This document shows, in pieces, positions 6,048-56,019 of a stretch of 64,000 bases of DNA (the first letter of the stretch is position 1; each line of letters begins with the position of its first letter). The notes below the pieces were generated by a model that had not been told where the DNA came from, ran no database searches, and saw nothing but the letters and a program-made list of their open reading frames with translations. Source of the DNA: Candidatus Xenobia bacterium. Lineage in GTDB: Bacteria; Vulcanimicrobiota; Xenobia; Xenobiales; QWHO01. A program made the position numbers and the translations under genes. The DNA is taken from assembly GCA_045863235.1 (NCBI GenBank), contig BTUM01000004.1, positions 88,621 through 152,620 of the forward strand. The letters run 5' to 3'.

Positions 6048-6415
6048 TGCTCTCGCTGCGCTGGCCCCGGCTCTGCAGGCTGGTGGAGAAAGCGGGTACG
6101 ACCCCGGTCTGGCTGCACGGACGGGTGCTCCGGTTGCGCGAGGAGACGGGCGAGTACGAGGGCGACCACCAGTATGCCGGCCACCTCGACTGGCACTTTG
6201 CCGAGGTGCTGGCCCGGGTCGTGAGCCTGAGCCGGCTCACCCCCCAGGGGCCCGACGAGCCCCTGCCGGCGCCCCGAGATGTCACCGTCAACTTCGACCC
6301 CTTCCCGGACGGACTGCGCTCGGGAGTGGAGTTCCGGGTAGCCGGACGGCTCTTTCCCGACGGCCGCATCGAGCCCGTCACCGAGAGCCTGGAGCTGATC
6401 AAGCGCGAGCAGTGA
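6047..6415 (+). CDS. Small hypothetical protein (122 aa), translationally coupled to the upstream gene
   Basis: The GTG start at 6047 overlaps the TAG stop of the upstream gene by 1 nt (TAGTG). The product MLSLRWPRLCRLVEKAGTTPVWLHGRVLRLREETGEYEGDHQYAGHLDWHF... has balanced composition and no recognisable domain. Confidence 0.45.
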   Translation: MLSLRWPRLCRLVEKAGTTPVWLHGRVLRLREETGEYEGDHQYAGHLDWHFAEVLARVVSLSRLTPQGPDEPLPAPRDVTVNFDPFPDGLRSGVEFRVAGRLFPDGRIEPVTESLELIKREQ

Positions 6416-6468
6416 AGCCGAGTCCGGCAGCGAGGGGAACTCCGCGAAGAAAGCAGAACCCCGCCGGG

Positions 6469-7122
6469 ATGGAGTTCGATGACCAGCGCCTGGGTGAGCG
6501 TCTGCGCCAGGCCCGCGAGGCGCGCGGCTGGAGTCTTTCGGAGCTGGCCGCAGGGGTAGGCTACCCACCCGAGATGGTGGCCGAGTGGGAGAGCGGCCAA
6601 CGCTCCCTCAAACCCCGTCTGCTCTATCGGCTGGCCCAGGTGCTGGGTACCCCCGTGGCCCGCCTTTTCGACGAGGACGAGAACCGCTTCATCCCCTGGA
6701 ACCCCAATACCGGACGGCTGGACATCTGCCTTCACTGCGGCGCCCGCGAGCACGCCGCCGAAGCTGCCCACTGCAGCGAGTGCGGCTACCAACTGGAGAC
6801 TTCACAGTGCACTGGCGAATTGGAGGATGCCTACCTGGGCATGTCCCGGCCCTGTCTCAACCTGATCCCCCCCGGCCAGATGCACTGCCAGAACTGCGGC
6901 ACCCCCTCGCTGTGGGCCGAGCTCTCCGACCGCCTGCCCCGGCGCGGCCTGCATGCCGTGGAGGGATTGGTGGAGGCTCCCGCTCGGGGCGAGCTGGAGC
7001 TGGCCCTGGAGCGGCTCGAGGAGCTCGAGCATGGCCTTCGCGAGGTGCGCCTGCAGCTCGAGCGTCTGGCCGGCCGGCCGAGCAAGGTGGAGCGCAGTTC
7101 ACATCCTGACGCAAAGCGTTAA
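6469..7122 (+). CDS. XRE-family HTH transcriptional regulator with two zinc-ribbon motifs and a C-terminal coiled coil
   Basis: In-frame ATG at 6469 (the track ORF 5773..7122 has an Arg/Pro-rich leader artefact). The HTH region is LGERLRQAREARGWSLSELAAGVGYPPEMVAEWESGQRSL. Zinc-ribbon-like pairs are CLHCG...HCSECG and CLNL...HCQNCG. Confidence 0.7.
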   Translation: MEFDDQRLGERLRQAREARGWSLSELAAGVGYPPEMVAEWESGQRSLKPRLLYRLAQVLGTPVARLFDEDENRFIPWNPNTGRLDICLHCGAREHAAEAAHCSECGYQLETSQCTGELEDAYLGMSRPCLNLIPPGQMHCQNCGTPSLWAELSDRLPRRGLHAVEGLVEAPARGELELALERLEELEHGLREVRLQLERLAGRPSKVERSSHPDAKR

Positions 7123-7182
7123 CACGCCCCAGGCGGGTTCTGGCTTAGAGTCGCCCCATCTCAGAGAGGACGACTCAGACCA

Positions 7183-7686
7183 ATGCAGATCAGCCAGCTG
7201 ACCACCTATAACCTTCCCCGGACCGCCAACGCTCCCGTGGCGGGGAAGTCCGCGCCTCCGGTTCAGGAAGAGCCGGCGGACCGTATTGAAGCATTTTACA
7301 CCGGGGCGGCCAACACCGCCAAGTGGATGTCGCGCATCGACGGCGCCGTACTCGGCGGCGTCATCGGGCTGGCCGTGGGCGCCACCGTGGGGGCAGCCGT
7401 CTTCGGAGCCGGCGGGACCGGAATGGGCTCCTTCCTCATCGCCAGCGGTCTGGCCGTGGGCGGCGGTGCCGGCGGCTACACCGCCTTCGACCGGCTGAGC
7501 GCCTTTGGCGGCAAGATCGGCCGGGGCCTGGACGAGGGCAACGACCTGCGCGGCGAGGCTCTGGGCCGGGTGGGCGTGAACATGGGCCTCAGTCTGCTCG
7601 CGGGCAACTGGCGAGCGGTGGCCCTGAACGCCGCCATCCCGCTCGTCGGTGGTGCCGTCAACTACGCCCTGGCTGGCGATCGATAA
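7183..7686 (+). CDS. Small glycine-zipper-like membrane protein
   Basis: 167 aa with Gly/Ala-rich hydrophobic stretches (GGVIGLAVGATVGAAVFGAGGTGMG...LAVGGGAGGY). A T8 run follows the stop. Confidence 0.5.
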   Translation: MQISQLTTYNLPRTANAPVAGKSAPPVQEEPADRIEAFYTGAANTAKWMSRIDGAVLGGVIGLAVGATVGAAVFGAGGTGMGSFLIASGLAVGGGAGGYTAFDRLSAFGGKIGRGLDEGNDLRGEALGRVGVNMGLSLLAGNWRAVALNAAIPLVGGAVNYALAGDR

Positions 7687-7722
7687 GCTTTTTTTCAGTC
7701 CGGGGGGGCACACTCTGCGGGT

Positions 7723-27192: not shown

Positions 27193-27525
27193 TCAGTCAG
27201 CCAGGATCTTCTGCAACTCCCAGCGATCCAGCCACATGCCCCGGCAGGTGGGGCACACATCCACCTGGGTGGAGCGCCATTCCCACTCCTTCATGACGAC
27301 GTGGCAGCGTGGGCACTTGCGCTGGCCGGGGGGAACCGTCTTGCGCGAGTCATCGAAGGCCAGCGGTTGGAGAGCGTTCTTGGGCAGCGAGGCCAGAGTG
27401 ACCAGCAGCTCCGGCTCACCGTCGTCGAACCAGAGCCCGTCGCACAGCTCGCACTCGTCGAGTACCAGGTCGCCCAATCGAACCTCGCGCAGAGGCACCA
27501 GGCAGGTGGGGCACTCGATGTTCAT
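27193..27525 (-). CDS. Zinc-ribbon protein (TFIIB-type, COG3809-like), last gene of the flotillin operon
   Basis: MNIECPTCLVPL...CELCDGLWFD and a second ribbon CPRCHVVM...CPTCRGMW. Its start overlaps the stop of the giant ATPase gene (ATGA). Confidence 0.65.
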   Translation of the reverse strand: MNIECPTCLVPLREVRLGDLVLDECELCDGLWFDDGEPELLVTLASLPKNALQPLAFDDSRKTVPPGQRKCPRCHVVMKEWEWRSTQVDVCPTCRGMWLDRWELQKILAD

Positions 27526-30500
27526 TCAGGCGACTTCCTGGGAGTTTTGGCTTTGGAGGCAGCCACCTCGGGAGGCGGCTCCTCCAGCGGGCTGAGCGCC
27601 TCCACGCACTCGGTCAGGTTGGTGGCCGCCATCAGGCCGTCGAAGACGCGCACCAGCACCGGATCCATCACCAGAGCCTTGGATTTGGGCCCGCGCACCA
27701 GCTGAGCCAGGGCCTTGAGCTGGGGCACGACGCGCACGAACGAGTCCAGGGCCCCCGGGCCGAGGTTGAGCTGGGGCACCACCTCGGGCGCCAGAACCAC
27801 GGGTTGAGAGGAGGCCACGCCCGCCACGGGAGCCGAAGCCGCCGGCCGCTCGGCCAGCCGGGCCAGAGCCTCGCTCATTTTGTCCAGCACCGGGGAGAGG
27901 TCCACGGGAGCAGCAGGGGCGGCGGCCGCCGCCGGGGGAGCCGAGGAGGCCAGCCGGTTCAAGGACTGCCCCAGCTTCTCCAGCACCGGACCCATGTCCA
28001 CCTGGGCCGGGCGCTGCTCCGCCAGCTTCTCCAGCAGGCCCGACACCGGAGCCGGTTTCTCGCTGGCATACTCGATGCTCTGGGAGATGTCGCCCAGCTT
28101 CTCGGCCAGCACGCTGAGCAAGTTCGAGATGCGCACGGCCGGGTCGTCGTCCTTGCCGCCGGTCATCTGGCGGCGCTGGTAACCGCGCTTGATCTCGTCC
28201 CAGCGGGCCAGTTGCTCGGGACTCTGGCGGCCACGCAGCTCGGCCAGCTTGAGCAGGTTCTGCTCGGCCCCCGTGGTCAGGGTCTGGGACTCGCCCTGGT
28301 AGTGGTCGTCCACCAGGCGCTCGAGCTCGTCCTCGTTCATCACCGACGAGACCTTCTCGGCCAGCTTGTTCATGTTGCGGTAGCTGCCCTGCAGCTTGAA
28401 GGCCGGCTCGGTGCGATAGGCGTCGTCCATGCTGGCGGACAGGATGTACTGCTTGTTGATACGCAGCAGCACGGCCTGGATCTTGAGCAGCTTGGTCAGC
28501 ACCGAGCGTAGCTCTTCCAGCTCGACCGGCGAATAGGAATGGCTGAGCTCGCTGGGGGGGATCATCTCCCCCTGGGCCATGCGCACCAGCTTGTACACGT
28601 CCTCGGGCTCACGCCCCGAAAGCGGTGCCAGCACGGGGTTGGAGGTCAGAGCGTTCTCCAGGTAGCTCAGCTCGAACAGCTCCTCGCGACCCGACAGCAC
28701 GTCGCCCAGGTTGTAGGTGTCGGCGCGGTTGGCCAGCATGTCGGGGATCTGAAAGCGCGCTCCCGACTCGGTGTAAGGGTTGCCGGCCATGCAGACGCAG
28801 AAGCGCTTGCCACGCAGGTCATAGGTGCGTGTGCGACCCAGCCAGACGCCCTCGATCTTGCGCTGGGCGTCGCACAGCGAGATGAACTTCTGCAAGAACT
28901 CGGGATTGGTGTGCTGGATGTCGTCGATGTAGAGCAGCACGTTGTTGCCCATCTCCAGGCCGAAGTTGACCTTCTCGACCTCCTGGCGGGCGGTCACGTT
29001 GGGGGCCTCGTTGGGGTCGAGCGAGCTGACCGCATGGCCCAGCGCCGGCCCGTTCACCTTGACGAAAATGAGGCCCAGCCGGTTGGCGATGTACTCCATC
29101 AGGGTGGTCTTGCCGTAGCCAGGGGGCGAGATCAGCAAGAGCATGCCCATCAGGTCGGTCCGCTTGGTCTCGCCTAGCGAGCCGATCTGCTTGGCCAGGT
29201 TCTCGCCGATGAGGGGCAGGTAGACGTCGTTGATGAGCTTGTTGCGCACGAAGGCGCTCATCACTTTGGGCGTGTATTCGTCCATCCGAAGGCGCGCACG
29301 CTCGCGGGCCAGCACGCCCAGCCGCTTCTCCTGATACGCCCGAAAACCGGGCACGCGCTGGCTGCGGAAGCCCCCCAGCCGGGTCAAGAACTCGTCCAGG
29401 CGAAGCTGCATGACCCGGTTCTGGATGCGCGCGTGCTGGCCCAGCAGGCCCTGAACCGTCGCCGTGGTGGCGGCGCTGACGGTCTCTCGCTCCAGGCCCG
29501 GGGTCAGCAAGAGCACGGCCATCTCTTCTTGCACGTGCTCGGCCCGGCCGGCCTCCTTGAGCCGACCGACGAAGGCTCGCACCCAGGAGAGGGCCAGCTC
29601 GTAGCGGCGGGCAGGATCGGCCTGCAGGGCGACCAGTTGCTCGCTCAGAGCGGTGTAGAGGCGCTGGCCTTCCAGGGCCTTGATGAAGGCGTCGCGCAGG
29701 GCCGCCGCGTCGCCGCTCAGGATGAAGCGGGGCTGCGGCCTGGCCAGCTCGAGCAAGAGGTAGCTGCCTGCCTGCTCGGCTTCCTGAGGCGAGAGCTCGA
29801 GCTTGTGCAGCACGCACAGCTCGCCGATGCGCTCGCCCAGCTCGCGGGCCAGCTTCTCCTCGGCCTCGCTGGGCCCGAACATCTTGCGCATCAAGGCCAG
29901 ACTCTGGGCCTGGCGATGCCAGTGCTCGCCTTCGGCGGCCTGGTTGCTCCAGAAGTAGACGCCGGCCGCCCGGGCGGCCGGCGAGAAGCGCAGCAGGCCG
30001 GCTGAGCTGTAGAGGTAGAGCAAGCTCTCCAGAATCAGGGCCGCGTCGTGGTCGTGAATACCGCGCTCGTAGCCCTCGTCGTAGCGCTCGGCCGCCACCC
30101 CCCGCACCAGCTCGAGCAGCCCCGGGTGCACGTCGCCGTCGGGCCGGGTGGCCCCCGAGCGCAGCGTGTCGTAGAGCTTGCTCATCGAGCCCTTCTCGGC
30201 CTGGCTGAGGATGCTGAAAGCCAGATACTCGCCCCGGTAGACCTGCTCCGTCTCGCTGACCAGCTGCTGCTCCCAGAACTCGCGGGTGGACTCGAAGTCG
30301 CTGTCATGCAGGCTCTGGTAGAAGTCGGTGCCGGTGATGTGCAGGTGCATCACCCCTTCGCGCGGCACCATGGTCAGCTCGACCGCCTCGGTATTGACCG
30401 AGAACTTGTGCCGACCCAGCCGGATGACGTTGGCGCCCTCCTCGTAGATCTCGGTCTTGTCTCGCAGGGTCCGGGTGGACTCCTGGCGGGCCATCTTGAG

Positions 30501-33020
30501 GCGCGAGGCCAGCTCGTCGGCCTTAACCGGATCGCCCAGCTCGCGCAGCTTCTCCTCGATGTCGCGCACCTTCATCACCATCGGGTCGCTGGCGAAGTAG
30601 GTGTTCAGATCGTCAGGCGAGGTCATGGTGCCCGAGCGGCGCACGATGCCCTCCAGAATGCGGTCGGCCGCTCCGATCAGTTGCTGGGCTCGGCGCTGAC
30701 GCTGATCCAACAGCTGCTGGCGCTTGGTGGAGAGGGTCTTGTAGACGTCCTCGCGCTTGGTGGTCAGCTCGCCCATGAACTGCTCGTACTCTCCGAAGCG
30801 AGCCTCGAGCTCCTCGAGCTGCAGCATCAGGCGTGAGAGGGCCTGATCGCACTTTTCGGGCGAGTCGGCCAGGTTGATGGCGCTGGTGACGCTCTGGCCG
30901 AAGAGCTGGAACTGCACCCCGAACTCGGCCACCGACTCCTTCTCGCCCAGCTCCTTGCGGCGGGAAGCCATGAGGGCCCGCACCCGGTTGACCTGGCCGA
31001 GTACTTCGGCGATGCGCTCGAGAATCTGGGTGCGCACGGTGGCATCCTCGATCTTGATGCTGCCCAGCACCTCGGTGAGCAGCTCCAGCCCACTCCCGAT
31101 CTTCTCCAGCTCTTCCACCAGAGGCACCAGCTCGGTGACCTTGGCCACCTTCTCCAGCCCTGAGCCCAGCTCCTCAACCCGCTTGACATAGGGGGCGAAG
31201 GCCTGCTCACCCAGCAGGAACTGAACCGCTCTGGCGCTGATCTGATCGTAATAGCCGATGGCCTCTTGCTCGAGCCGGTTCAGCTCGGCCAGGTCAGCAT
31301 AGCGCATCTCCTTGAGGGTGATCAGATGCCCACGCTGGCGGCGCAGCGAGCCCAGCGCTTCCACATAGGAGTCCACGCTGGTCCAGTCTTCCGGGCGCAG
31401 CGACTTGACCAGGTCGAGCATGGTCTGCTGGGCCTCGCGCAAGGCTTTGAGCGCCTGGCGGCGCAGGGTCTCGACTTTGTCGAACTCCTCCAGCACCAGC
31501 TTGCCGGTCTTGCCGATCTCCTTGAGCAGGGCCAGCACGTTGCCCGACTCCTCGTGGCCCAGCCAGTGGTAGAAGTCCTCGCAGCGGGCCACGGAGGCGA
31601 TCAGGTCCTCGTAGACGGTGTAGCTCGGCCTCTGCTCGTTGACCCGACGGGCGATGGAGAGGCAGTCGGAGATTCCCCGCACGAGATCGGCGTTACCGAT
31701 CTTCTCGAGGTAGCTGCCTGTCTTGCTCACCGCGCTGGCGGCCACGTCGTCGCGCAGGAAGGGGGTGCGCCAGATCTGCATCGGATGCACCCGGGCCGGC
31801 TCCTCGTTCGCCATGCGGAAGACGACGAGCAGGCCATCGGGGTAAAGGCAGTAGCCGTGGCAGTGGATGGGGGGAGCTACCTCCTTGCGGATCAGGTTGT
31901 AGCTCATCAGCGCCGTGTGGCCTTTGTCGAGATGATGGAAGGAGTAGAGAACGTCCTCCCCGTTGGGCGAGCGGATGGCCTTTTCGAGGATCATCCCGTC
32001 AAAGGAGCCCTCGAAGGTGCGCAGGGTTCCCTCCTGCAGGTAGAAGCCGCCTGGGAAGACGATGCCGTGGTCTTCAGGGAGTTGCACGCAGGCCTGCCCG
32101 ATCGCATCGATGCGGTGGACTTCCTTGGTGCGGGTGTTGAAGACCAGGTAACGCCAGACTTGCTCGCGATAGGGCAGGATCTTGAGCAAGATGAGCACGC
32201 CCACTTTGGCATACAGGATCTGAGCGTCCTGCAGCGCCTGGTTGGGATCGTCCACCTTCTCGGAGTAGATCCCCTGGCCGTCCTCGGTGTTGTTCTCGAT
32301 CTTGACGGTCAGGTCGCCCCCCACCGTCTCCACGAACACCTCGTCTAAGATGTTGACGTGGGGGTGGCGCCCGGTCACATGCTGCTCGCGGCTGGTGACC
32401 GTCCACTCGAAGTCGTGGGAGTGAGGGAAAGTATTGTCCTGCTCGCCGCGATTGTCGACGTACTCGGCCTTGCCATCGGGGGAGACCTTCCAGCGCAGAA
32501 CCCGCACGTCGGTGATCTGGCTGCCAATCACGAACACCGCCAGCACCTTGCCCAGAATCTGGCGAACATGCAGCATGCGGGCGTTCTTGTAGTATTTGAA
32601 GAGCTCCTTGAAGTCGCGCTCGAGCAGAGGGTGGTTGAGCATGGAGCCGGGCGCGTCGGGCGCTACCGGCACGAAGTCGTAGCCGCCCTCTTCGGTTCTG
32701 ACGAAGTCGTAGAGCGAGAGCACGTCGGGCAGCGGTGTCTCGGCCTTGCGACCGTACTGGACCTCGTAGCCCACCAGCAGCTGGTTGCCCACCGAGACGA
32801 TGTCGCGCGGCAGGCAGTTCTGCTCGGTGCGGATCTTCTCGTTGCCCACCACAGCCATCTCCATGCCCCCGAACAGAGCCACGCGTTTGGAGTTGAGCTC
32901 CTCCACGCGGTTCTTGAGGACTTTGGCCTGCTCCACCAGGCGGGCGCGCAGAATCTCGTAGGCGCCCTGCTCGATCTGCGGCGGAGCCTCAGGTGGGGTG
33001 GTGGTGACCTCTTCCGCCAT
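27522..33020 (-). CDS. Giant (1831 aa) AAA+-type P-loop ATPase, flotillin-associated, function unknown
   Basis: It starts 3 nt after the flotillin stop. The ATPase core sits near residue 1290: Walker A ISPPGYGKTTLMEYIA, Walker B NVLLYIDDIQH, followed by ...CMAGNPYTE.... It has long N-terminal and coiled-coil regions. Codon usage and composition are consistent with neighbouring genes. Confidence 0.7.
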   Translation of the reverse strand: MAEEVTTTPPEAPPQIEQGAYEILRARLVEQAKVLKNRVEELNSKRVALFGGMEMAVVGNEKIRTEQNCLPRDIVSVGNQLLVGYEVQYGRKAETPLPDVLSLYDFVRTEEGGYDFVPVAPDAPGSMLNHPLLERDFKELFKYYKNARMLHVRQILGKVLAVFVIGSQITDVRVLRWKVSPDGKAEYVDNRGEQDNTFPHSHDFEWTVTSREQHVTGRHPHVNILDEVFVETVGGDLTVKIENNTEDGQGIYSEKVDDPNQALQDAQILYAKVGVLILLKILPYREQVWRYLVFNTRTKEVHRIDAIGQACVQLPEDHGIVFPGGFYLQEGTLRTFEGSFDGMILEKAIRSPNGEDVLYSFHHLDKGHTALMSYNLIRKEVAPPIHCHGYCLYPDGLLVVFRMANEEPARVHPMQIWRTPFLRDDVAASAVSKTGSYLEKIGNADLVRGISDCLSIARRVNEQRPSYTVYEDLIASVARCEDFYHWLGHEESGNVLALLKEIGKTGKLVLEEFDKVETLRRQALKALREAQQTMLDLVKSLRPEDWTSVDSYVEALGSLRRQRGHLITLKEMRYADLAELNRLEQEAIGYYDQISARAVQFLLGEQAFAPYVKRVEELGSGLEKVAKVTELVPLVEELEKIGSGLELLTEVLGSIKIEDATVRTQILERIAEVLGQVNRVRALMASRRKELGEKESVAEFGVQFQLFGQSVTSAINLADSPEKCDQALSRLMLQLEELEARFGEYEQFMGELTTKREDVYKTLSTKRQQLLDQRQRRAQQLIGAADRILEGIVRRSGTMTSPDDLNTYFASDPMVMKVRDIEEKLRELGDPVKADELASRLKMARQESTRTLRDKTEIYEEGANVIRLGRHKFSVNTEAVELTMVPREGVMHLHITGTDFYQSLHDSDFESTREFWEQQLVSETEQVYRGEYLAFSILSQAEKGSMSKLYDTLRSGATRPDGDVHPGLLELVRGVAAERYDEGYERGIHDHDAALILESLLYLYSSAGLLRFSPAARAAGVYFWSNQAAEGEHWHRQAQSLALMRKMFGPSEAEEKLARELGERIGELCVLHKLELSPQEAEQAGSYLLLELARPQPRFILSGDAAALRDAFIKALEGQRLYTALSEQLVALQADPARRYELALSWVRAFVGRLKEAGRAEHVQEEMAVLLLTPGLERETVSAATTATVQGLLGQHARIQNRVMQLRLDEFLTRLGGFRSQRVPGFRAYQEKRLGVLARERARLRMDEYTPKVMSAFVRNKLINDVYLPLIGENLAKQIGSLGETKRTDLMGMLLLISPPGYGKTTLMEYIANRLGLIFVKVNGPALGHAVSSLDPNEAPNVTARQEVEKVNFGLEMGNNVLLYIDDIQHTNPEFLQKFISLCDAQRKIEGVWLGRTRTYDLRGKRFCVCMAGNPYTESGARFQIPDMLANRADTYNLGDVLSGREELFELSYLENALTSNPVLAPLSGREPEDVYKLVRMAQGEMIPPSELSHSYSPVELEELRSVLTKLLKIQAVLLRINKQYILSASMDDAYRTEPAFKLQGSYRNMNKLAEKVSSVMNEDELERLVDDHYQGESQTLTTGAEQNLLKLAELRGRQSPEQLARWDEIKRGYQRRQMTGGKDDDPAVRISNLLSVLAEKLGDISQSIEYASEKPAPVSGLLEKLAEQRPAQVDMGPVLEKLGQSLNRLASSAPPAAAAAPAAPVDLSPVLDKMSEALARLAERPAASAPVAGVASSQPVVLAPEVVPQLNLGPGALDSFVRVVPQLKALAQLVRGPKSKALVMDPVLVRVFDGLMAATNLTECVEALSPLEEPPPEVAASKAKTPRKSPE

Positions 33021-33023
33021 CGA

Positions 33024-35198
33024 TCAGCCCTGAGGCGGGGCCGGACGGGGAGCGCGCGGCGCCACCGGGGCCGCCGGGGCGGCCGGAGGCAGAGCCTCCA
33101 TGCCCAGGCTGCGGGCCAGCTCCATCAGCTTGGCCTGGTCGGTGCCCCCGCTTTTCTTGATGAGCGAAGCCAGCAGCGAGGACACGCTCAGGTTCTTGAG
33201 GTCCTCCGAGCTCATCGAGGGGTTGGACAGGATGTCCTTGAGGTCCTTGGCCAGACTCCTCTCGCCGTTCATGTAGTCGCCCAGCATGGCCTTGGCGGCG
33301 TCAGAGTGCTGCATGAAGCGGTCCATGGACTTACTCATCGAGATGGCCCCGAAGATGCGGTCGAGCATGGCCCCGTCGCCGCCCACGATGTCGATCTTGG
33401 CCGACTTGAAGACCTCGGCCATGACCTTGGCCTGGGCCTCGGCCAGCTCTTTCTGGGTCTTGAGCGACTCCAGCGCGATGATGCGCTGGTTCTCGAGCTC
33501 GAGGCGATACTCTTCGTGGCGCCGCGAGACGTCGTCTAAGGCCTTCATGGCCTTGGCCTTCTCGGACAAACCGGCCGCCTCGGCCAGCAGCTTCTTCTGG
33601 ATGGCCTGGGCGTCGGCCTCGGCCCGGGCGGCGGCCACAGAGGCTTCGGCCATGCCCACTTTGTGGCGCGACTCAGCTTCGGCTTCGGCCTGGGCCTTCT
33701 TGATGGAGGCCTCCACCATTCCCAGCTTCTCGTTGGCCGGCGCCTGAGCTTCCTTGACGCGCACCTCGGCCATGCCCTGCTTCTCGAAGGCCAGGGTCTC
33801 GGCTTCCTGAACTTTGGCTTTGGCCAGGCCCTCGGCCGCTCTCTCAGCCTGAACGCCCTCCGACATGCGCACCTTGGCCTGGGCTTCCTTGTCGGCCGCA
33901 GCCAGCTCAGCCTCGGCCAGGGTCAGGCGCTGCTTGGCCGTAAGCCGGGCCACCGCCTCGGCCGCCTCGGCCTGCTTGATCTGCTGGGTGGCCTGCTCCT
34001 CGGCCCTGGCCTCGGCGGCGATCACGACCGAATCCTTGCTGCGCTTGGACTCTTCCTGCACGCGCAGGGTCTTGATGCGCTCTTCTTCCTCGACCACGTT
34101 CTTCTCCACCGCGATACGCTGGCGAATGACCTCCTGAATCTCCTTGCGCTCTTCCTCGAGGGCCTTCTCCTTGGCGATGCGCATCAGCTCGACCTCGCGC
34201 TCTTGCTCGATGGCCTTGAGGTTGATCTCCTTCTGGGCGATCTGCTTCTCGAGGTTGACCACGCGCTGGCGATTGGCGTTGGCCACCTCGATCTCGCGGT
34301 GCTTGTTCTCCTCCATCACCTGGATCTCGCGTTCGGCCTCGATGCGAGCGGCCTCGGCCTTCTTGCGCTCCTCGGCCTGGATTTTGGCGATCTCTGCCTC
34401 GCCCCGGGCGCGAGCCGACTCGACCTCCAGGGTCTGGCGGGTCTGGGCGTCGGCCTGCAGGCGATCCTGCTCCATGATGATGGCGTTGGCCTCGACGTCC
34501 TGGGTCTTGATGCGCTTTTTCTCCTCGTTGAGCAGGTAGTTGGTCTGCACGCGCTGCTCGTGGGTGATCTCGGTGATCTTGCGAATACCCTCGGCGTCCA
34601 TGATGTTGGTCTCATCGAGCGCCGTCAGGGGCGTTTGCTCGAGGTAATCGATGGCCACGTCCTCGAGCACGTAGCCGTTCAGGTCCTCGCCGATGACACC
34701 GCGCACCATGTCGCGAAACTCGGTGCGGCGGGTGTAGAGCTCGGCGAAGTCGTGGCTCTTGCCTGCCGTCTTGAGGGCCTCGGAGAACTTGGCCTCGAAC
34801 AGGTCCTCCAGGGTGCGCGGGTCGGAGGCCCGGGCGCAACCGAGAGACTGGGCCACTTCGAGCACGTCCTCCACGGTCTTGTTGACGCGCACGAAGAACA
34901 TCACGCGGATGTCGGCCCGGATGTTGTCTTTGCAGATCAGGCCCTCTTTACCGCGGCGATCGATGTCGATGGTCTTGACCGAGATATCCATCATCTCTGC
35001 CTTATCGAACAGCGGCATCACCCGGGCGCCGGTAAAGACCACCTGCGGGTCCTTCTGGCCCTTGCGGTTGATGATCAGCGCTTTGCCCTGCTCCACCCGA
35101 ATGTAGAAGCGGGCCTCGGCCAGCGTCCACACCAGCCACAGAAAGAGCAGCGAGCCCACCAGGCCGCCCCCGATGATGAGCATGGTGATCAGTTCCAC
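33024..35198 (-). CDS. Flotillin (SPFH/band-7 domain plus long flotillin helical repeats)
   Basis: N-terminal TM segment MELITMLIIGGGLVGSLLFLWLVW. The SPFH core is ...RVMPLFDKAEMMDISVKTIDI.... An extended EA-repeat coiled coil follows (AEERKKAEAARIEAEREIQ...). Confidence 0.9.
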   Translation of the reverse strand: MELITMLIIGGGLVGSLLFLWLVWTLAEARFYIRVEQGKALIINRKGQKDPQVVFTGARVMPLFDKAEMMDISVKTIDIDRRGKEGLICKDNIRADIRVMFFVRVNKTVEDVLEVAQSLGCARASDPRTLEDLFEAKFSEALKTAGKSHDFAELYTRRTEFRDMVRGVIGEDLNGYVLEDVAIDYLEQTPLTALDETNIMDAEGIRKITEITHEQRVQTNYLLNEEKKRIKTQDVEANAIIMEQDRLQADAQTRQTLEVESARARGEAEIAKIQAEERKKAEAARIEAEREIQVMEENKHREIEVANANRQRVVNLEKQIAQKEINLKAIEQEREVELMRIAKEKALEEERKEIQEVIRQRIAVEKNVVEEEERIKTLRVQEESKRSKDSVVIAAEARAEEQATQQIKQAEAAEAVARLTAKQRLTLAEAELAAADKEAQAKVRMSEGVQAERAAEGLAKAKVQEAETLAFEKQGMAEVRVKEAQAPANEKLGMVEASIKKAQAEAEAESRHKVGMAEASVAAARAEADAQAIQKKLLAEAAGLSEKAKAMKALDDVSRRHEEYRLELENQRIIALESLKTQKELAEAQAKVMAEVFKSAKIDIVGGDGAMLDRIFGAISMSKSMDRFMQHSDAAKAMLGDYMNGERSLAKDLKDILSNPSMSSEDLKNLSVSSLLASLIKKSGGTDQAKLMELARSLGMEALPPAAPAAPVAPRAPRPAPPQG

Positions 35199-43856: not shown

Positions 43857-43972
43857 GGCGCACCCGGCTTCGCGAACGGGGACCGGAGGCCTGCCTGGGG
43901 GATGCTGGGCACCATGGAGGCTCTGGCCAGGCGGCTTCGAAAGCTGCAAGCATCCCCGGAAAGGAGCCCAGA

Positions 43973-44341
43973 ATGGTAAGACGGATCGGATTGAGCCTGT
44001 CCTGCCTGCTGCTGCTGGCGATCCCCGCCATGGCACAGGTGGTGGACCTGCCCGCCGGAGCCGACAAGGTGGAAAAGCACCTGGTTTCCGGCAAGACCAC
44101 CATCGTGGAGTTCTACGCCGACTGGTGAGGGCCGTGTAAGAGAATGGCCCCCAGTTTGGAGGCCTACGCCAAGAATTCCGCCAACAAGACCGCCCTGCTC
44201 AAGATCAACGTTGACAACCACAGCGATCTGAGCGACAACATGGGAGTGCGTTCCATTCCCGCCTTCTTCATCTATGACGCCAAAGGCAAGCTGATCAAGC
44301 AGGGGCCTGACGCGCGCAGCTGGGTCGAGGAGAAGATCTGA
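43973..44341 (+). CDS. Secreted thioredoxin-like protein with in-frame TGA in the active site (W-TGA-GPC): candidate selenoprotein, otherwise a pseudogene
   Basis: ATG at 43973 with SD aaaggag. The signal peptide is MVRRIGLSLSCLLLLAIPAMA. The thioredoxin core reads ...KTTIVEFYADW[TGA 44126-44128]GPCKRMAPSLEAYAK.... The reading frame continues uninterrupted into track ORF 44144..44341 (...GVRSIPAFFIYDAKGKLIKQ...). The hairpin GGGCCgtgtaagagaatGGCCC starts immediately 3' of the TGA. Confidence 0.55.
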
Positions 44342-44375: not shown

Positions 44376-44732
44376 TCAGATCCGGTGCATGTAGGCGAAG
44401 ATCTCCTCGCGCTGCAGGCGAAAGCGCACCCCCAGCGGACGAGACTCGACCTCCAGGCGCTCGCGCAGCTCAGCCAGGTTGGCCGCCGAGCAGTTGTCCA
44501 CCTCGGCCGACAGAATCAGGGTGAAGCACTTTTGCTGCTCCACCGTGTCGGCCCGCAACACCCGCACCCCGTTGCGGGCCAGCAGATCGTGCACCCGGGT
44601 GGCCAGATCGGCGTGAGCCTGCGAGCCGACCTGATAGCGAGCCTCTCCCAGCACGATGTGGCGCGGTTCGGCGGCCGGGTAGCAGAGCCCGTCCGGCCCG
44701 TAGACCGCCAGTATCAGTCGGCATCCATTCAT
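44376..44732 (-). CDS. Hypothetical protein (118 aa)
   Basis: Balanced composition. It sits directly downstream of mutS2 on the same strand. No confident family assignment. Confidence 0.4.
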   Translation of the reverse strand: MNGCRLILAVYGPDGLCYPAAEPRHIVLGEARYQVGSQAHADLATRVHDLLARNGVRVLRADTVEQQKCFTLILSAEVDNCSAANLAELRERLEVESRPLGVRFRLQREEIFAYMHRI

Positions 44733-49421: not shown

Positions 49422-52049
49422 TCAGGTCTGAGGATCAGCGACCTGGCCACCCTGAAGGCGCCGGTCGATCACGTGCCGCAGCTTGCCGCTGCGCGGGTTG
49501 CGCTCCAGCTCTCCCGGACTGACGACCTCTACCACCAGTTCGGCCAGCAAGCCCTGCTCGAGCCGCTCACCGAGCACAGGCAGGCGCTCGAGCAGCCTTT
49601 CTCGTACCCTCTCACTGGAGGCCGGGCCTTCCACCCGCACCCGCAGCCGATCGAGCAGGTCCCGCTTCTCGGCTACCAGTTGCACGGCGCCCGCCAGGCC
49701 GACCAGAGCTTCGGCCACGTCTTGCCAGGAAGTGTTGGTGCTGGCCAGGCAGAGCAGGTCGTCAGAGCGGCCAAGCAGCTCGAAGCGAGGAGTGGTCCGA
49801 CCGCAGGGGCAGGGCTCTTGCAGCCAGCGGGCTCGATCCCCCAATCGATAGCGAATCAGCGGCATCAACCGGCGCTGCAGGCAGGTGATCACGACCTCTC
49901 CCTCCGGGGCCGGTCTGCCTTGCGCGTCCAGTAGCTCCATCCACACCTGGTCGCTGGCCAGGTGGTGCACCGAGCCCGGGCAATGGGCGCACTGGTAGCC
50001 GATGGGTCCGCCGTCGTTGGCGCCCAGAATCGAGCCCAGCCGGGTCAATCCGAAGCGTTCGCGCAAGAGCTTCTGCTCGCCCGGGGGCAGGGGCTCGCCC
50101 CCGTAGACCACCGTCTTGATGGGGGGGCGAGCCTGGCGCTCGTGGAGGTCGGAGAACAGGCGGGTGAGCTGAGACGAGACCCCCAGCACCACCCCCACTT
50201 CGAAGCGCTCGAAGTGCAGCATCAGGCTCTCGAGGGGGGCCGAGGCGGTGAAGGGGAGGTTGACCACGCCGGCTTCCTCCAGCACTCGGTGGATGCTCAG
50301 GAAACTGCCGTAGAGGTCGCCCGAGAGGAAGAGGTTGGCGCAGCGGTCCCCCGGGCGAACGCCCAGGGCGCGCAGCATCTTGACGCCGGCCAGGACGTCG
50401 GCGCGATAGTCCTCCGGGCTCAAGAAGCAGTACTTGGGGTCGCCGGTGGAGCCGCCGCTGCGCAGCACCACGGCGTCCTTGAGAGGCGCGGTCAAGAGCT
50501 CGGCGGACTGAAGGTGCAGCACCGAGCGCTCCAGCAACGGCTGGCCCTGGAAGTCCTCCGGGAGGCAGACCGGGGTAAGGCGCTCGCGGTAGTAGGGCGA
50601 GCGAGCGCGCACGAACTCGATCAGGTCGAGCAGCCGCTCCCAGCTGATGGCCTCGGCCTCGGCGGCGGGGCGGGTCTCCCAGTCGTGGCTGATGCCCTCG
50701 GGGGCGTCGGCGGTCAAACTCACCCAGCGCACCAGGGGTTGCAGGCCGAGACGGCCGTCGTGGGGCTCGCCGGGCTGCCCCCCTGCCATCTCGCCGAGGC
50801 GGCAGATGCGGGTGGCTCCCGCCGCGGTCAGCAGCCGGCCCAGGTGGCGCGAGCGATAGAGCCCGGCCTCCAGGCCCACGGTCTGAAGGAAGCTGCGCCA
50901 GGGCTCGAGCAGAACCGGCAGCTCGCGCTCGGGTTGCTCCACCGTCTTGATGATCAGCGTGCGGTGCAAGGGCGAGGAGCGAAGCTCGCTCTCGTCGCTC
51001 TCGTAGATCAACGTCCAGGCCAGGGGACGCCTGGAGGTCAGCAGTCGCACCGGTCGCACGGCCTGGTCAAAAAGAGCCATCTGGCGCTCCTTGGTGACCT
51101 CGATGGCGGTATCGAAGGCGGGCTCGGCAGACGGCAGCTCGGCCTCCACCTCCTCCAGCGCCCGGGCCAGCGGCTCGAGCAGCCGCTCGGCGTTCTCGGC
51201 TCCCTCCACGTAGAGCACCTGGGGCGAGGAGCAGGCGTGTTGATCCCACATCGACACGTCGCGGGCCAGGCGGCCCGCCAGCTCGGGCAGATCCTGCCAG
51301 CCCGGGGCGTCGGCGGTGAGCACGGCCAGCGACAGCTTGGGCCCGTAATCCACCACCTCCACGTGGGGATCGACCCCCTGATGGTAGCGGCGCACGGCCT
51401 CCTCGCCCCCGGTGATGACGATGGCGTCACAGCCTGCTTTGAAGAGCGACTCCAGGCTCTCGTCGCCTCCCGACCAGGAGAGCACGGCGGTGGAGCGGGT
51501 CAGCTCGCCATCCTCTTCGAAGGCGGCCAGGCTCTCCACGAAGAGCCGGGCAAACAGCGGGTCACCGCTGGAGGCCTTCAGCAGAGTCACGTTGCCGGTC
51601 AGCAGAGACTCGGCCAGGAGGATGGCGGCGCCCACGAAGACATTGCCCGAGGCCACCGTCAGCACCACCCCGCGGGGACGAGCCCGCAGGTACTCCCCGA
51701 TGCTCTTGCGCGGAGTCCAACGATCGAGCAGGTCAGCCGGCCCCAACTCGCGCTCGATGCGCATCTCCAGGACGTCGCGTCGCAGGGCGTTCCCCATCAT
51801 CGTGAGGGATTGCGCCACCATGGGCCGGGACATGCCCACCAGGTCGGGGATCTCTTGCTCAGCCCGGCGTCGGGGGGGGAACTCGGGGTCGACCCAGGCA
51901 GCTCCGGCCCGATCCAGAATGCGCATGATGCGCCGCACCGAGATGCGCTCGTAGCTCAGGGTGCGCTCGCGAGCCCGGCCCAGCACCTCACGGACCCGCT
52001 CGGCGGTGAGCGGGCCGCTCCAGGTCTCCCCCAGCACGAAGTGGCTCAT
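49422..52049 (-). CDS. Fusion protein: LuxC-type acyl-CoA reductase (N-terminal) + PaaK/F390-synthetase-like adenylate-forming enzyme (C-terminal)
   Basis: ATG at M58 of the track ORF, overlapping the luxE-like stop (ATGA). The N-terminal half matches LuxC hallmarks (VVLTVASGNVFVGAAILLAESLLTGNVTLLKASSGDPLF ... AGCDAIVITGGEEAV; cf. LuxC HLLAGNVPLSG...IKTSSTDPF...DVIVAWGG). The C-terminal half has ...VVLRSGGSTGDPKYCF... and the CPCGR motif, paralogous to 58537..59814. Confidence 0.7.
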   Translation of the reverse strand: MSHFVLGETWSGPLTAERVREVLGRARERTLSYERISVRRIMRILDRAGAAWVDPEFPPRRRAEQEIPDLVGMSRPMVAQSLTMMGNALRRDVLEMRIERELGPADLLDRWTPRKSIGEYLRARPRGVVLTVASGNVFVGAAILLAESLLTGNVTLLKASSGDPLFARLFVESLAAFEEDGELTRSTAVLSWSGGDESLESLFKAGCDAIVITGGEEAVRRYHQGVDPHVEVVDYGPKLSLAVLTADAPGWQDLPELAGRLARDVSMWDQHACSSPQVLYVEGAENAERLLEPLARALEEVEAELPSAEPAFDTAIEVTKERQMALFDQAVRPVRLLTSRRPLAWTLIYESDESELRSSPLHRTLIIKTVEQPERELPVLLEPWRSFLQTVGLEAGLYRSRHLGRLLTAAGATRICRLGEMAGGQPGEPHDGRLGLQPLVRWVSLTADAPEGISHDWETRPAAEAEAISWERLLDLIEFVRARSPYYRERLTPVCLPEDFQGQPLLERSVLHLQSAELLTAPLKDAVVLRSGGSTGDPKYCFLSPEDYRADVLAGVKMLRALGVRPGDRCANLFLSGDLYGSFLSIHRVLEEAGVVNLPFTASAPLESLMLHFERFEVGVVLGVSSQLTRLFSDLHERQARPPIKTVVYGGEPLPPGEQKLLRERFGLTRLGSILGANDGGPIGYQCAHCPGSVHHLASDQVWMELLDAQGRPAPEGEVVITCLQRRLMPLIRYRLGDRARWLQEPCPCGRTTPRFELLGRSDDLLCLASTNTSWQDVAEALVGLAGAVQLVAEKRDLLDRLRVRVEGPASSERVRERLLERLPVLGERLEQGLLAELVVEVVSPGELERNPRSGKLRHVIDRRLQGGQVADPQT

Positions 52050-53131
52050 TCCAGCAGCCTCGCGGCCGCAATGGCGCAGCCGGCGTGCTTGCGCGTGCCG
52101 CCCCGGCCCAGAAAGCGAAGCGCAGGGGCCTGACGCCCGCACGGGCAACCCTCCTCCAGGGCCGCCAGGTCGCTGGTCAGCAGGCTGAGGTTGGGCACAC
52201 TGGTCAGAAACGGGGTGCACAGCTGCAACAGACCTGGCTCACCCGGAGCGAGCGGCCGAAGATCGAGGGGATGACGGATCAGCGCCCGGCAGAACACCGG
52301 AACATGGAAGCGGTGGGCCGGGCACTCGACGTAGGGGGCGCCGTGCTCGACCATGCCATAGTTGTCGCGCTGGCGCTCGGGGGGCACAGCCAGCTTCTGG
52401 CTGACCAGCTGGAGAAACTCCTCGCGAGGGATGGCCTGCTCGGCCTGGCCCTTCCAGCCCCCGCCGGTCAGCACCCAGCTGCCCTCAGCCAGCCTGACCG
52501 GGGCGTGCAGCCGCGTCATCAGACGGTGCAAGAAGGAGGGGAAGCCCACGATGCGCGTGGGGAACGGGCTTTGAGCCAGCCGCACCAGAGCCTCGAGCGC
52601 CCCTTCCTCGTCGAAGAAGAACCCCTCCGGGCCCTTTTGAAGGGCGTAGAACACCTCGGCCTGGCGGGTGAAACGGGTCCAGTTGGAGGAGCTGAAGGCC
52701 GCCCCCGAATCGGGAGCTTCAGCCGGGTCGTAGGAGAAAAGCAGCGAGTTGGTTGTCTCGTCGGGGGCCACCAGCCCCTGGTCGGCAAAGACCGTCTCGA
52801 GCATGGCCTGGGCCCGATCGAGCGAAGCCTGGTCGAAGAAAGTCTGGCTCTTTTGCCCCGAGGTCCCACTGGAGCGAACGTGCAGCACGACCTGGCTCTT
52901 CTCCACGCTGAGGAGCTCGTAGCGCTTGAACACGTTGACGAAGACGAAGGGGGCATCCTCCAGGCGCCCCAGGCGCTGAAAGCCCTGCTGCTCGCAAAAC
53001 CGGCCGAACTCGGGGCAGGAGCGGCGGTGGTGGGCAAACGCCTCCTGCATGGCCTCGTGAAAGAGCAGCTCGCGCTCATCGTCGAGGTCATAAGGGCGAT
53101 CAAGGCGACAGAGGCGGTCGATAGCTTGCAT
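52046..53131 (-). CDS. LuxE-like acyl-protein synthetase
   Basis: 361 aa. Adenylation motif VRSSGTSGQKSQTFF and a LuxE-type architecture. It lies immediately upstream of, and translationally coupled to, the LuxC fusion. Confidence 0.65.
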   Translation of the reverse strand: MQAIDRLCRLDRPYDLDDERELLFHEAMQEAFAHHRRSCPEFGRFCEQQGFQRLGRLEDAPFVFVNVFKRYELLSVEKSQVVLHVRSSGTSGQKSQTFFDQASLDRAQAMLETVFADQGLVAPDETTNSLLFSYDPAEAPDSGAAFSSSNWTRFTRQAEVFYALQKGPEGFFFDEEGALEALVRLAQSPFPTRIVGFPSFLHRLMTRLHAPVRLAEGSWVLTGGGWKGQAEQAIPREEFLQLVSQKLAVPPERQRDNYGMVEHGAPYVECPAHRFHVPVFCRALIRHPLDLRPLAPGEPGLLQLCTPFLTSVPNLSLLTSDLAALEEGCPCGRQAPALRFLGRGGTRKHAGCAIAAARLLE

Positions 53132-53264
53132 CCTGGAGGGCCCCGTTTCTCACCGGCGGCGGCCGGCCCTGCTCTGCGCACTGATATCCTTCTGTCCATA
53201 CTGCGGCAACAATCCTGGGACCAGCCGCGCGTAAACTCAGGGCGGTGCGCAAACAGGAGACCTC

Positions 53265-54827: not shown

Positions 54828-56019
54828 CCCCGGGCACCTGTTCGCGTGACAGGAGGCCATAGCCCAGTGCAGCCACGCCCAGCGTGGCGCAGCCCAGCCC
54901 CAGCAGCATGGCGCGGGGGCCGACCAGGCCCACCAGGGGAGAGGCCAGCGTCACCCCGAGCGGTGCCGCCAGGCCCACCATGGCGAACAGGCTGGAGAAG
55001 ACGCGACCGTGCATCTGCGGGGGAGTCGTGCGCTGCACCAGGGTGATCACCACGGCGTTGCCGGGCGCGACCCCGAAGCCCGCCAGCGCAGCCAGCAGCA
55101 CGCTCACGGGCAGGTTGGGGGCAACCGACATCAGGGCGAAGGCCGCTCCCAGGAGGCCCATGCCGGCGTAGATCACAGTGGCCGGTCGCAGCCGGCGAGC
55201 CAGGGGAGCGGCGGCCAGAGAGCCCAGCACCATGCCGGCGCCCACTCCGCCCATGAGCCAGCCGAAGCCCTGCGGGCCGGCCCTCAACGCGCGCTCGGAG
55301 AAGACAGGGAAGAGCACCGCAAAGGGCATGGCCAGGAAATTCCCCGCCATGGCGGTCAGAAAGACCAGCCTCAAGAAGCGGCTGCGCAAGAGGTAGCTCA
55401 GTCCCTCGCGGGCCTCGGCCAACAGCTTTCGAAGCGTCAGGGGAGAGGTAGCTCCCGGCTCGGGCCGCCCGCGCATGAAGGCCAGAGCCAGGGCCGAGAC
55501 GACGAAGGAGGCGGCGTCGATGTAGAGGACGTGTACGGGGCTGCTCAACCAGGCCACCAGCAGTCCGGCCAGCACCGGCCCGAACAGGGAAGCCGCCTGG
55601 GCGGTCATCTCGGCGTAGGCGTTGGCCTCGGTCAGGTCGTCCTCCTCCACCAGCCGGGGGATGAGCGATTTCTCGGCCGAGTAGAACATCAGGCTGAGGC
55701 TGGAGACCAGGAAGGTCACGGGAAAGATGATCCAGGTCTGAGCGGTCAGGGGGATGAGCAGCACGAGCAGCCCGCGCAGCAGGTCCACTGCGATCATCAA
55801 GGCCCGGCGCGGGAAGCGGTCGACCACCACTCCGGCCCACCACCCGAAGAGCGCGTTGGGAAGGATCTGGGCCAGGAAGACTCCCCCGGTAAGAGTGGTG
55901 GAGCCGGTGGTGGTCAGCACCAGCCAGGCCAGAGCCACGTAGTTGAGCTGGTTGCCGAGCTGGGAGACCAGCTGGCCGATCCACAAAAGACCGAAATCGC
56001 GCCGCCGCAGCAGGATCAT
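54802..56019 (-). CDS. MFS transporter (EntS/DHA-like exporter)
   Basis: 405 aa with 12 predicted TM segments, including ...VVDRFPRRALMIAVDLLRG.... Its start overlaps the stop of the upstream gene (ATGA). Confidence 0.8.
   Translation of the reverse strand: MILLRRRDFGLLWIGQLVSQLGNQLNYVALAWLVLTTTGSTTLTGGVFLAQILPNALFGWWAGVVVDRFPRRALMIAVDLLRGLLVLLIPLTAQTWIIFPVTFLVSSLSLMFYSAEKSLIPRLVEEDDLTEANAYAEMTAQAASLFGPVLAGLLVAWLSSPVHVLYIDAASFVVSALALAFMRGRPEPGATSPLTLRKLLAEAREGLSYLLRSRFLRLVFLTAMAGNFLAMPFAVLFPVFSERALRAGPQGFGWLMGGVGAGMVLGSLAAAPLARRLRPATVIYAGMGLLGAAFALMSVAPNLPVSVLLAALAGFGVAPGNAVVITLVQRTTPPQMHGRVFSSLFAMVGLAAPLGVTLASPLVGLVGPRAMLLGLGCATLGVAALGYGLLSREQVPGVRREPGWP

Follow-up and report, generated by a model that had tools for sequence, protein, structure and literature searches.

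The DNA considered here is a stretch of 64,000 nucleotides from a contig of a Candidatus Xenobia bacterium (BTUM01000004.1), referred to below as the window. On its plus strand, at positions 43973–44341, lies a thioredoxin gene whose reading frame is interrupted by a single in-frame TGA codon, at the place where thioredoxins carry the first cysteine of their WCGPC active site. From comparative sequence analysis, we consider it likely (with a probability of about 0.85) that the gene specifies a small exported thioredoxin with selenocysteine (Sec) as the attacking active-site residue, in a W-U-G-P-C motif, and that decoding of the UGA would depend on a selenocysteine insertion sequence (SECIS) located within the coding region shortly after it. 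The features of the gene are as follows.

43961–43966, plus strand: Shine-Dalgarno-like AAGGAG, 6 nt 5' of the start codon, as read from the sequence.
43973–44341, plus strand: predicted complete gene for an exported thioredoxin selenoprotein, with 122 codons, one of them for Sec, before a TGA stop.
43973–44035, plus strand: predicted signal peptide of the Sec-translocon type, MVRRIGLSLSCLLLLAIPAMA, with a basic N-terminus, a hydrophobic core and an A-x-A motif; predicted cleavage before Q22.
44126–44128, plus strand: codon 52, an in-frame TGA predicted to specify selenocysteine as the nucleophile of W-U-G-P-C (13/13 related loci; Pfam and PDB alignments).
44129–44137, plus strand: codons for Gly53-Pro54-Cys55, between the TGA and an internal ATG; Cys55 is the predicted resolving cysteine.
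44129–44150, plus strand: inverted repeat GGGCC(12 nt)GGCCC, the hairpin first proposed as SECIS, extendable to GGGCCGU/AUGGCCC plus an outer CUGG/CCAG helix.
44146–44164, plus strand: best SECIS candidate, GGCC-C-CCA-[GUU]-UGG-A-GGCC, apical loop 44154–44156, 25 nt after the UGA.
44252–44260, plus strand: Ser-Ile-Pro, residues 94–96, putative thioredoxin cis-proline loop.

From ATG 43973 the frame reads MVRRIGLSLSCLLLLAIPAMAQVV...IVEFYADW up to TGA 44126–44128 and continues without a shift as GPCKRMAPSLEAY... to the stop codon at 44339–44341; in longer form it is MVRRIGLSLSCLLLLAIPAMAQVVDLPAGADKVEKHLVSGKTTIVEFYADW, the TGA, and then GPCKRMAPSLEAYAKNS...SWVEEKI, ending at TGA 44339–44341. The first of these two TGA codons, at the first Cys of WCGPC, is the sole interruption of the thioredoxin frame. 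An initial annotation of this DNA had described an ATG at 43973 with a good Shine-Dalgarno sequence and a thioredoxin frame broken by TGA 44126–44128, and the sequence agrees with this. It had also taken the open reading frame (ORF) 44144–44341 as the continuation of the gene beyond the TGA; this ORF is indeed in the same frame, but it begins only at Met58 (ATG 44144), and the five codons (GPCKR) that separate the TGA from this ATG precede it.

The read-through product was scored with Cys substituted at the TGA. It matched the Pfam Thioredoxin model (PF00085) with 71.9 bits and an E-value of 5e-20 (gathering score 23.5), residues 37–105 aligning with profile positions 14–83 of 103, and it matched 239 chains of thioredoxins and protein disulfide isomerases (PDI) in the Protein Data Bank (PDB) at E < 1e-5. 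In these chains the TGA codon aligned with the first Cys of CGPC or CGHC (CGHC in PDB 8eky), giving an active-site motif W-[TGA]-G-P-C at residues 51–55 in which the first Cys is replaced by a UGA codon. The position claimed for the TGA in the initial annotation, exactly at the nucleophilic Cys of WCGPC, was thus borne out by the Pfam and PDB alignments alike. Ser94-Ile95-Pro96, which we take to be the cis-proline loop from general knowledge of thioredoxins and from the range of the Pfam alignment, belongs to a motif GV[RK][ST]IP kept in all orthologues. The Thioredoxin_2 and AhpC-TSA models gave only 32–34 bits, and the cut-off of the TrxA equivalog model of NCBIfam (TIGR01068, 96.8) was reached neither by the window protein (73.8 bits) nor by the orthologue from locus L001 (74.6 bits). 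Matches of the read-through product to the NCBIfam TlpA, ResA, DsbE and DsbD models fell far under their cut-offs, and none of the selenoprotein-specific models of NCBIfam reached its cut-off. By these profile scores the protein is a member of the thioredoxin family and not a TrxA equivalog, and the read-through protein would be expected to adopt the thioredoxin fold.

In database searches the closest proteins were fragments of 65–69 residues, all beginning MAPSLEAY, and not full thioredoxins. The DNA of these fragment matches was fetched, and genome and metagenome collections were scanned, giving at least 13 distinct related loci. Assemblies carrying the gene include CAUJEN01, CAYYHB01, CAZYPN01, JAANMW01 and JAANMU01, and the source environments are anammox or membrane-biofilm reactors and anaerobic digesters. 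All of the loci (13/13) have TGA at this very codon, in independent assemblies representing at least seven lineages, with ...LVEFYADW on its 5' side and GPC on its 3' side in every locus. GC content of the loci ranged from 43% to 68% and protein identity to the window from 57% to 99%. Six loci (L010, L011, L012, L014, L015 and L016) are syntenic with the window, with 89–99.6% nucleotide identity; L001/L013, L007, L009, L017, L018 and L019 have only this gene in common with it, differing in their flanks and having a locus GC of 43–64%. Full-length orthologues with matching architecture were recovered from L001, L007, L010–L013 and L016–L018. On both sides of the TGA the nonsynonymous rate (dN) was below the synonymous rate (dS), with values of 0.41/1.10 upstream and 0.34/1.19 downstream for the window compared with L001, and no further stops or frameshifts were found within the gene in the related loci. 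The UGA is therefore conserved, and the frame downstream of it is translated, as this purifying selection indicates. Among 11 sequences, the Gly-Pro-Cys residues that follow the TGA are invariant and are written with three Gly, four Pro and two Cys codons; from this invariance combined with synonymous codon variation it follows that ribosomes read through the TGA in frame, and that a pseudogene, a sequencing error or a simple stop-and-restart is excluded.

A homologue with Cys was identified in locus L023 (P0003), having a signal peptide, a WCGPC motif and TGT at the codon occupied by the TGA, and sharing 55% identity with the window protein; about 100 further WCGPC homologues were also found. 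Aligned at this codon, the orthologous loci thus have TGA (13/13) and P0003 has TGT (Cys), so that the proposal of Sec at the nucleophilic position (W-U-G-P-C) made in the initial annotation is strongly supported by the conserved TGA, the purifying selection on its two sides and the Cys homologue. When 1.84 billion cluster representatives were searched exhaustively with a profile, there were only three strong matches (114–140 bits), all of them fragments, the next match having 81 bits. The clade is accordingly a small one, and this search revealed no close orthologue with Cys.

Several other features of the related loci were recorded. Directly downstream of the Sec-thioredoxin gene, L009 (355–618) and L017 (2092–2355) have a homologous ORF of 87 residues (MQA[DE]SK[ED]LSL[ST]EIVDLIQ...) that has no Pfam match and is absent from the window lineage. 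L011 and L012 (CAZWUN01 and CAYYHB01) share synteny and about 90% nucleotide identity with the window, yet are titled “uncultured Burkholderiales bacterium”, and the taxonomic labels of L011, L012 and L013 (CAZYPN01) look wrong. The nearest named homologues of a gene neighbouring the one in L001 are in metagenome-assembled genomes (MAGs) of Vulcanimicrobiota/Eremiobacteraeota, at about 60% identity, which is only suggestive.

The core of the predicted signal peptide had a maximum 11-residue Kyte-Doolittle score of 2.73, and every full-length orthologue has an N-terminus that is basic, then hydrophobic, then of small-x-small type, with AMA/Q in the window and GWA/E in the others (the slash marking the predicted cleavage site), as for example in MKKLLLVAALASAGWA/ETV. 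This suggests export via the Sec translocon and a mature protein of about 100 residues (~11 kDa), with QVVDLPAG... as its predicted N-terminus. A reading as a lipoprotein was rejected: in L010 the Cys of “LSLSC” is replaced by Ser, and the signal peptides of most orthologues contain no Cys. W-U-G-P-C is a reducing motif of the classical thioredoxin type. The closest solved bacterial relatives, PDB 3hxs and 3hyp (bacterial thioredoxins of about 140 residues; E 5e-17 over query residues 17–85 of the mature protein), which we take to be Bacteroides fragilis TrxP, a periplasmic thioredoxin, share the classical thioredoxin active site with the window protein and use Cys in it. Because of the predicted export, the reducing-type W-U-G-P-C motif and these thioredoxin relatives, we propose that the product is an envelope-located reductase in which the selenolate would attack disulfides or sulfenates of substrates and Cys55 would resolve the intermediate. 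The gene neighbourhood across the related loci held nothing conserved that indicates a specific substrate.

With regard to the SECIS, the bSECISearch model as given in the legend of Fig. 2 of PMC13188914 comprises a loop of 3–9 nt with G and then G/U near the loop start, an upper stem of 4–16 bp, a spacing between UGA and loop of 16–37 nt and a minimum free energy (MFE) of ≤ -7.5 kcal/mol. In the initial annotation the hairpin immediately 3' of the TGA had been put forward as a possible bacterial SECIS. The inverted repeat is present at 44129–44150, and it is the MFE fold in the window, but a SECIS role for it is unsupported: its loop begins only 7 nt after the UGA, outside the spacing in that legend, and in L009, L017 and L018 its third pair is broken with no compensation, the core energy there being 0 to -2.5 kcal/mol. 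It was set aside on these two grounds. Hairpin 44146–44164, which overlaps it so that the two are mutually exclusive, has a GUU loop closed by A44153-U44157 (A-G-U-U-U) that is invariant in 11 lineages, a spacing of 25 nt (44129–44153) and an MFE of -8.3 kcal/mol in L009 and -10.4 kcal/mol in the ten other lineages (z about -2.2), all within the loop, spacing and energy values of the legend. All seven of its pairs form in 8/8 aligned sequences, L009 having a double change from C-G to U-A.

The nucleotides of this hairpin are themselves under constraint. At the invariant residues of codons 58–65, the pairwise difference at third positions was 0.10, compared with 0.44 at invariant residues elsewhere in the gene, and in these codons Pro is written only as CCC, Ser only as AGT and Leu only as TTG, the locus with 43% GC included. 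The Cys homologue P0003 is without the hairpin (-3.4 kcal/mol, z = 0.1). No copy of the 9-nt SECIS core CCAGTTTGG, or of the 19-mer with up to three mismatches, was found in the window or the related loci outside this gene. The case for a SECIS rests mainly on this nucleotide invariance, on the geometry of the hairpin and on its absence from the Cys form; 44129–44150 is probably the wrong SECIS, and 44146–44164 is the better candidate. In the SECIS of Escherichia coli fdhF, SelB binds a hairpin of the coding sequence that lies at a fixed distance 3' of the UGA and has a G-U-containing apical loop and an A-U closing pair. Hairpin 44146–44164 likewise is a short coding hairpin at a fixed distance from the UGA with a G-U apical loop and an A-U closing pair; the fdhF element has a GGUC loop and a bulged U, whereas here the loop is a 3-nt GUU starting 25 nt after the UGA, and the stem contains a C·A mismatch.

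Another pairing involves the same nucleotides. In 8/11 lineages the MFE fold of 44121–44156 brings GACUGG, immediately before the UGA, into pairing with CCAGUU, a part of the SECIS stem and loop. This pairing, which L009, L017 and L018 have lost, encloses the UGA and hairpin 44129–44150 and masks the SECIS loop. Such an alternative structure could have a regulatory role or could be a mere by-product of the sequence.

Several results weigh against Sec insertion directed by hairpin 44146–44164. The C·A mismatch splits the 7-pair stem into 3 bp above and 4 bp below it, to be compared with 4–16 bp for the upper stem in the Fig. 2 legend. Covariation is thin, amounting to a single compensatory change, in L009, and an equal score was reached in 55 of 500 shuffles. 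Thermodynamically, the naked RNA favours the competing hairpin in 8/11 lineages. Rfam gave no match, either for the window at gathering thresholds or for 44090–44220 at E-values up to 10; a general model of the bacterial SECIS is not known to us from Rfam, hence no match would be expected. Finally, searches with ARAGORN, Rfam and Pfam, which covered the 64 kb of the window (about 45 of its genes in the case of Pfam) and some 150 kb from the related loci, revealed no selA, selB, selD or tRNA-Sec. The organism would presumably have the capacity to decode Sec if the UGA is read as proposed.

Among the tRNA predictions, ARAGORN reported a 95-nt “tRNA-Val” in the window (55563–55657, minus strand), a 95-nt “tRNA-Gly” in L001 (18364–18458) and a 93-nt “tRNA-Leu” in L013 (12051–12143). 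The first lies inside the ORF of an MFS transporter and has no Rfam tRNA or tRNA-Sec match, and the other two have no Rfam match either; all three were rejected as tRNA-Sec, and these calls of 93–95 nt are probably false positives.

The conserved UGA, the coding constraint and the hairpin show that recoding takes place, and not which residue is inserted. It might accordingly be supposed that the UGA is subject to programmed read-through in which a near-cognate tRNA inserts Trp, Cys or Arg, stimulated by the downstream RNA structure, and the missing Sec machinery in the sequence at hand (the window and related loci) would fit such an explanation. We nevertheless regard it as unlikely: the UGA is at the catalytic Cys of CGPC, the classic site of Sec/Cys exchange (PMC1088965, Table 3), where Trp or Arg would abolish activity and where Cys could be encoded more simply by TGY, as it is in P0003. 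The hairpin, moreover, with its G-U apical loop and its spacing, is typical of a SelB-dependent bacterial SECIS (bSECIS) as far as the model is described in the figure legend cited above.

Considerably less probable is a split gene, in which translation would stop at the UGA to give a secreted peptide of 51 residues and restart at ATG 44144 to give a polypeptide of 65 residues; the conserved nucleotides at about 44138–44146 would in that case serve as a ribosome-binding and re-initiation site. Precisely these two ORFs are predicted by gene callers, and ATG 44144 is invariant and follows a purine-rich AAGAGA or AAGAAA in most lineages. However, L009 has CGCAGC and L017 has CGCAAA in place of AAGAGA, the purine tract being gone, and the five codons ahead of the ATG show the substitution pattern of coding sequence in this frame, as the invariant G-P-C with its three, four and two codons illustrates. 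The downstream piece would be without a signal peptide and without the nucleophile, and nucleotide constraint is strongest on the 3' side of the ATG (44146–44164), not on its 5' side, where a ribosome-binding site belongs.

Hairpin 44146–44164 might also be read not as a SECIS but as the intrinsic terminator, on the minus strand, of the convergent gene 44376–44732, its reverse complement being flagged in a terminator consensus scan as an 8-pair stem followed by ATTCTCTTAC. This is very improbable, as the hairpin is more than 200 nt past the stop codon of that gene and has a poor U-run tail, its distance from the UGA is always fixed, and it is invariant in loci whose downstream neighbours differ wholly or share the strand (L001, L007, L017 and L018). 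The alternative named in the initial annotation, a pseudogene or an assembly error in which an ordinary thioredoxin gene carries a nonsense mutation or a miscalled base, can likewise be laid aside. Public annotation does treat the gene as truncated (GMU51767.1 and MCE7870600.1, each of 65 aa) and the Sec machinery is not seen in the window; against this, the same TGA recurs in 13 independent assemblies of at least seven lineages down to 57% protein identity, the gene has no other stops or frameshifts, and dN/dS remains below 1 downstream of the TGA. The differing flanks and GC of the loci argue against chimeric copies of one contaminant. The weakest alternative, a genome-wide reassignment of UGA to sense (as in genetic codes 4 or 25), is refuted and has nothing in its favour beyond the in-frame TGA itself, TGA being the commonest ordinary stop in the window (ending 25 of 39 confident genes, this gene included) and this being the one in-frame TGA in the 64 kb with coding-like flanks in the same frame that is not in a shadow frame of another gene, with no second coding-flanked case in the window or the related loci.

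For an exported thioredoxin with Sec at its active site, the following course of events can be envisaged. Translation would begin at ATG 43973. With UGA 44126–44128 in the A site, the ribosome would melt the pairing of the first ~15 downstream nucleotides, including hairpin 44129–44150, and hairpin 44146–44164 with its G-U apical loop would then be just outside the ribosome, in keeping with what is generally known of the ribosome footprint. The exposed hairpin would recruit SelB-GTP-Sec-tRNA(Sec), so that Sec would be inserted in place of termination and translation would run on to the stop at 44339–44341. The signal peptide would take the unfolded chain out of the cytoplasm and be cleaved after Ala21, and the mature protein of about 100 residues would serve in the cell envelope as a selenol/thiol oxidoreductase of strongly reducing character, presumably recharged by a membrane electron carrier of the DsbD/CcdA type. 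More tentatively, the clade, which so far contains TGA only, may be the first evidence of Sec decoding in Candidatus Xenobia/Eremiobacterota (Vulcanimicrobiota), with a 19-nt SECIS essentially frozen across loci of 43–68% GC and, in most lineages, a more stable alternative helix between the UGA flank and the SECIS loop that might serve as a switch, tying Sec insertion to ribosome position or conditions. In the literature searched, no paper mentions Eremiobacterota together with selenocysteine.

Thioredoxins of the PF00085 family with a UxxC motif are among the experimentally verified bacterial selenoproteins (PMC13188914, PMC9312934), an example being WP_010956703.1 of Treponema denticola, and UxxC selenoproteins termed “Trx” and “Trx-like 1” are abundant in marine metagenomes (PMC1088965, PMC2398784). 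The window protein, likened to the T. denticola and marine Trx proteins by family, belongs to the same Pfam family and would likewise have Sec first in CxxC (UGPC); widespread Cys homologues and a (here candidate) SECIS inside the coding region just after the UGA are also common to both. Judged by these comparative features, which define the UxxC thioredoxin selenoproteins, the window gene is of a known kind. Unlike the known Sec-containing thioredoxins, however, the window protein has a predicted N-terminal signal peptide, is predicted to work outside the cytoplasm and belongs to a small clade in which all recovered members have TGA and for which no close Cys orthologue was found; its host, in Candidatus Xenobia/Eremiobacterota, is a further difference. 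These characteristics, together with the very strongly conserved candidate SECIS, are what is notable about the gene.

Exported selenoproteins with UxxC have been described by comparative genomics, among them DsbA-like, DsbG-like and thiol:disulfide interchange (PF13098) proteins as well as a Prx-like thiol:disulfide oxidoreductase and a UGC-containing TlpA family (PMC1088965, PMC9312934, PMC13188914). These Dsb-like, Prx-like and TlpA selenoproteins combine a thioredoxin fold with UxxC, are for the most part probably located in the envelope, and were found by the same criteria of a conserved UGA, Cys homologues and a bSECIS. In contrast to the Dsb and TlpA types, the window protein best fits the classical thioredoxin model and has a reducing WCGPC-type motif. 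The list of Sec-dependent redox proteins would thus gain a predicted extracytoplasmic classical thioredoxin of WCGPC type, and selenium use in proteins would be implied for Candidatus Xenobia (Eremiobacterota), a lineage about which little is known and most of which is uncultured. The compact and very well-defined candidate SECIS at 44146–44164 could be used to search these genomes for more selenoproteins. The current understanding of Sec decoding is not changed by the window gene.

Recognition of the gene also corrects a recurring annotation error, by which it is recorded as a fragment of 65 residues. GenBank entry GMU51767.1 is exactly the downstream fragment of 65 aa, described as “hypothetical protein” from “MAG: Candidatus Xenobia bacterium”, and this entry and two neighbouring proteins are Candidatus Xenobia MAG entries (locus tags AMXMBFR33_09130 and AMXMBFR33_09140); the phylum Vulcanimicrobiota, for which the name Eremiobacterota is also in use, includes Candidatus Xenobia as one of its classes. 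Near-identical copies carry the label “bacterium CPR1”, as does MCE7870600.1, a “thioredoxin” of 65 aa, and the downstream piece is labelled “thioredoxin-like negative regulator of GroEL” by JGI. In all assemblies examined, gene callers split the gene into an ORF of 45–51 aa and one of 65–69 aa.

The other genes of the window are ordinary chromosomal genes, including prfC, a fabH/fabG/acpP cluster, rpmF, MutS2 and DUF711. On the minus strand at 27193–35198 is a three-gene block consisting of a 1,832-residue DUF3686 (“ATPase involved in DNA repair”)/DUF7902/AAA protein, a 724-residue protein that has no Pfam match and whose stop codon and the start of the next gene are 3 nt apart, and a small zinc-ribbon protein of the TFIIB type. 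At 49422–53149, also on the minus strand, a fusion of a LuxC-type acyl-CoA reductase with an AMP-binding domain (about 930 aa) adjoins a LuxE-type acyl-protein synthetase, a pair that suggests a pathway forming fatty aldehydes or fatty alcohols. In the region 3666–15056, ORFs of 793, 800, 371 and 652 aa with a strong coding signal and no Pfam match surround a Ser/Thr kinase with a PEGA domain.

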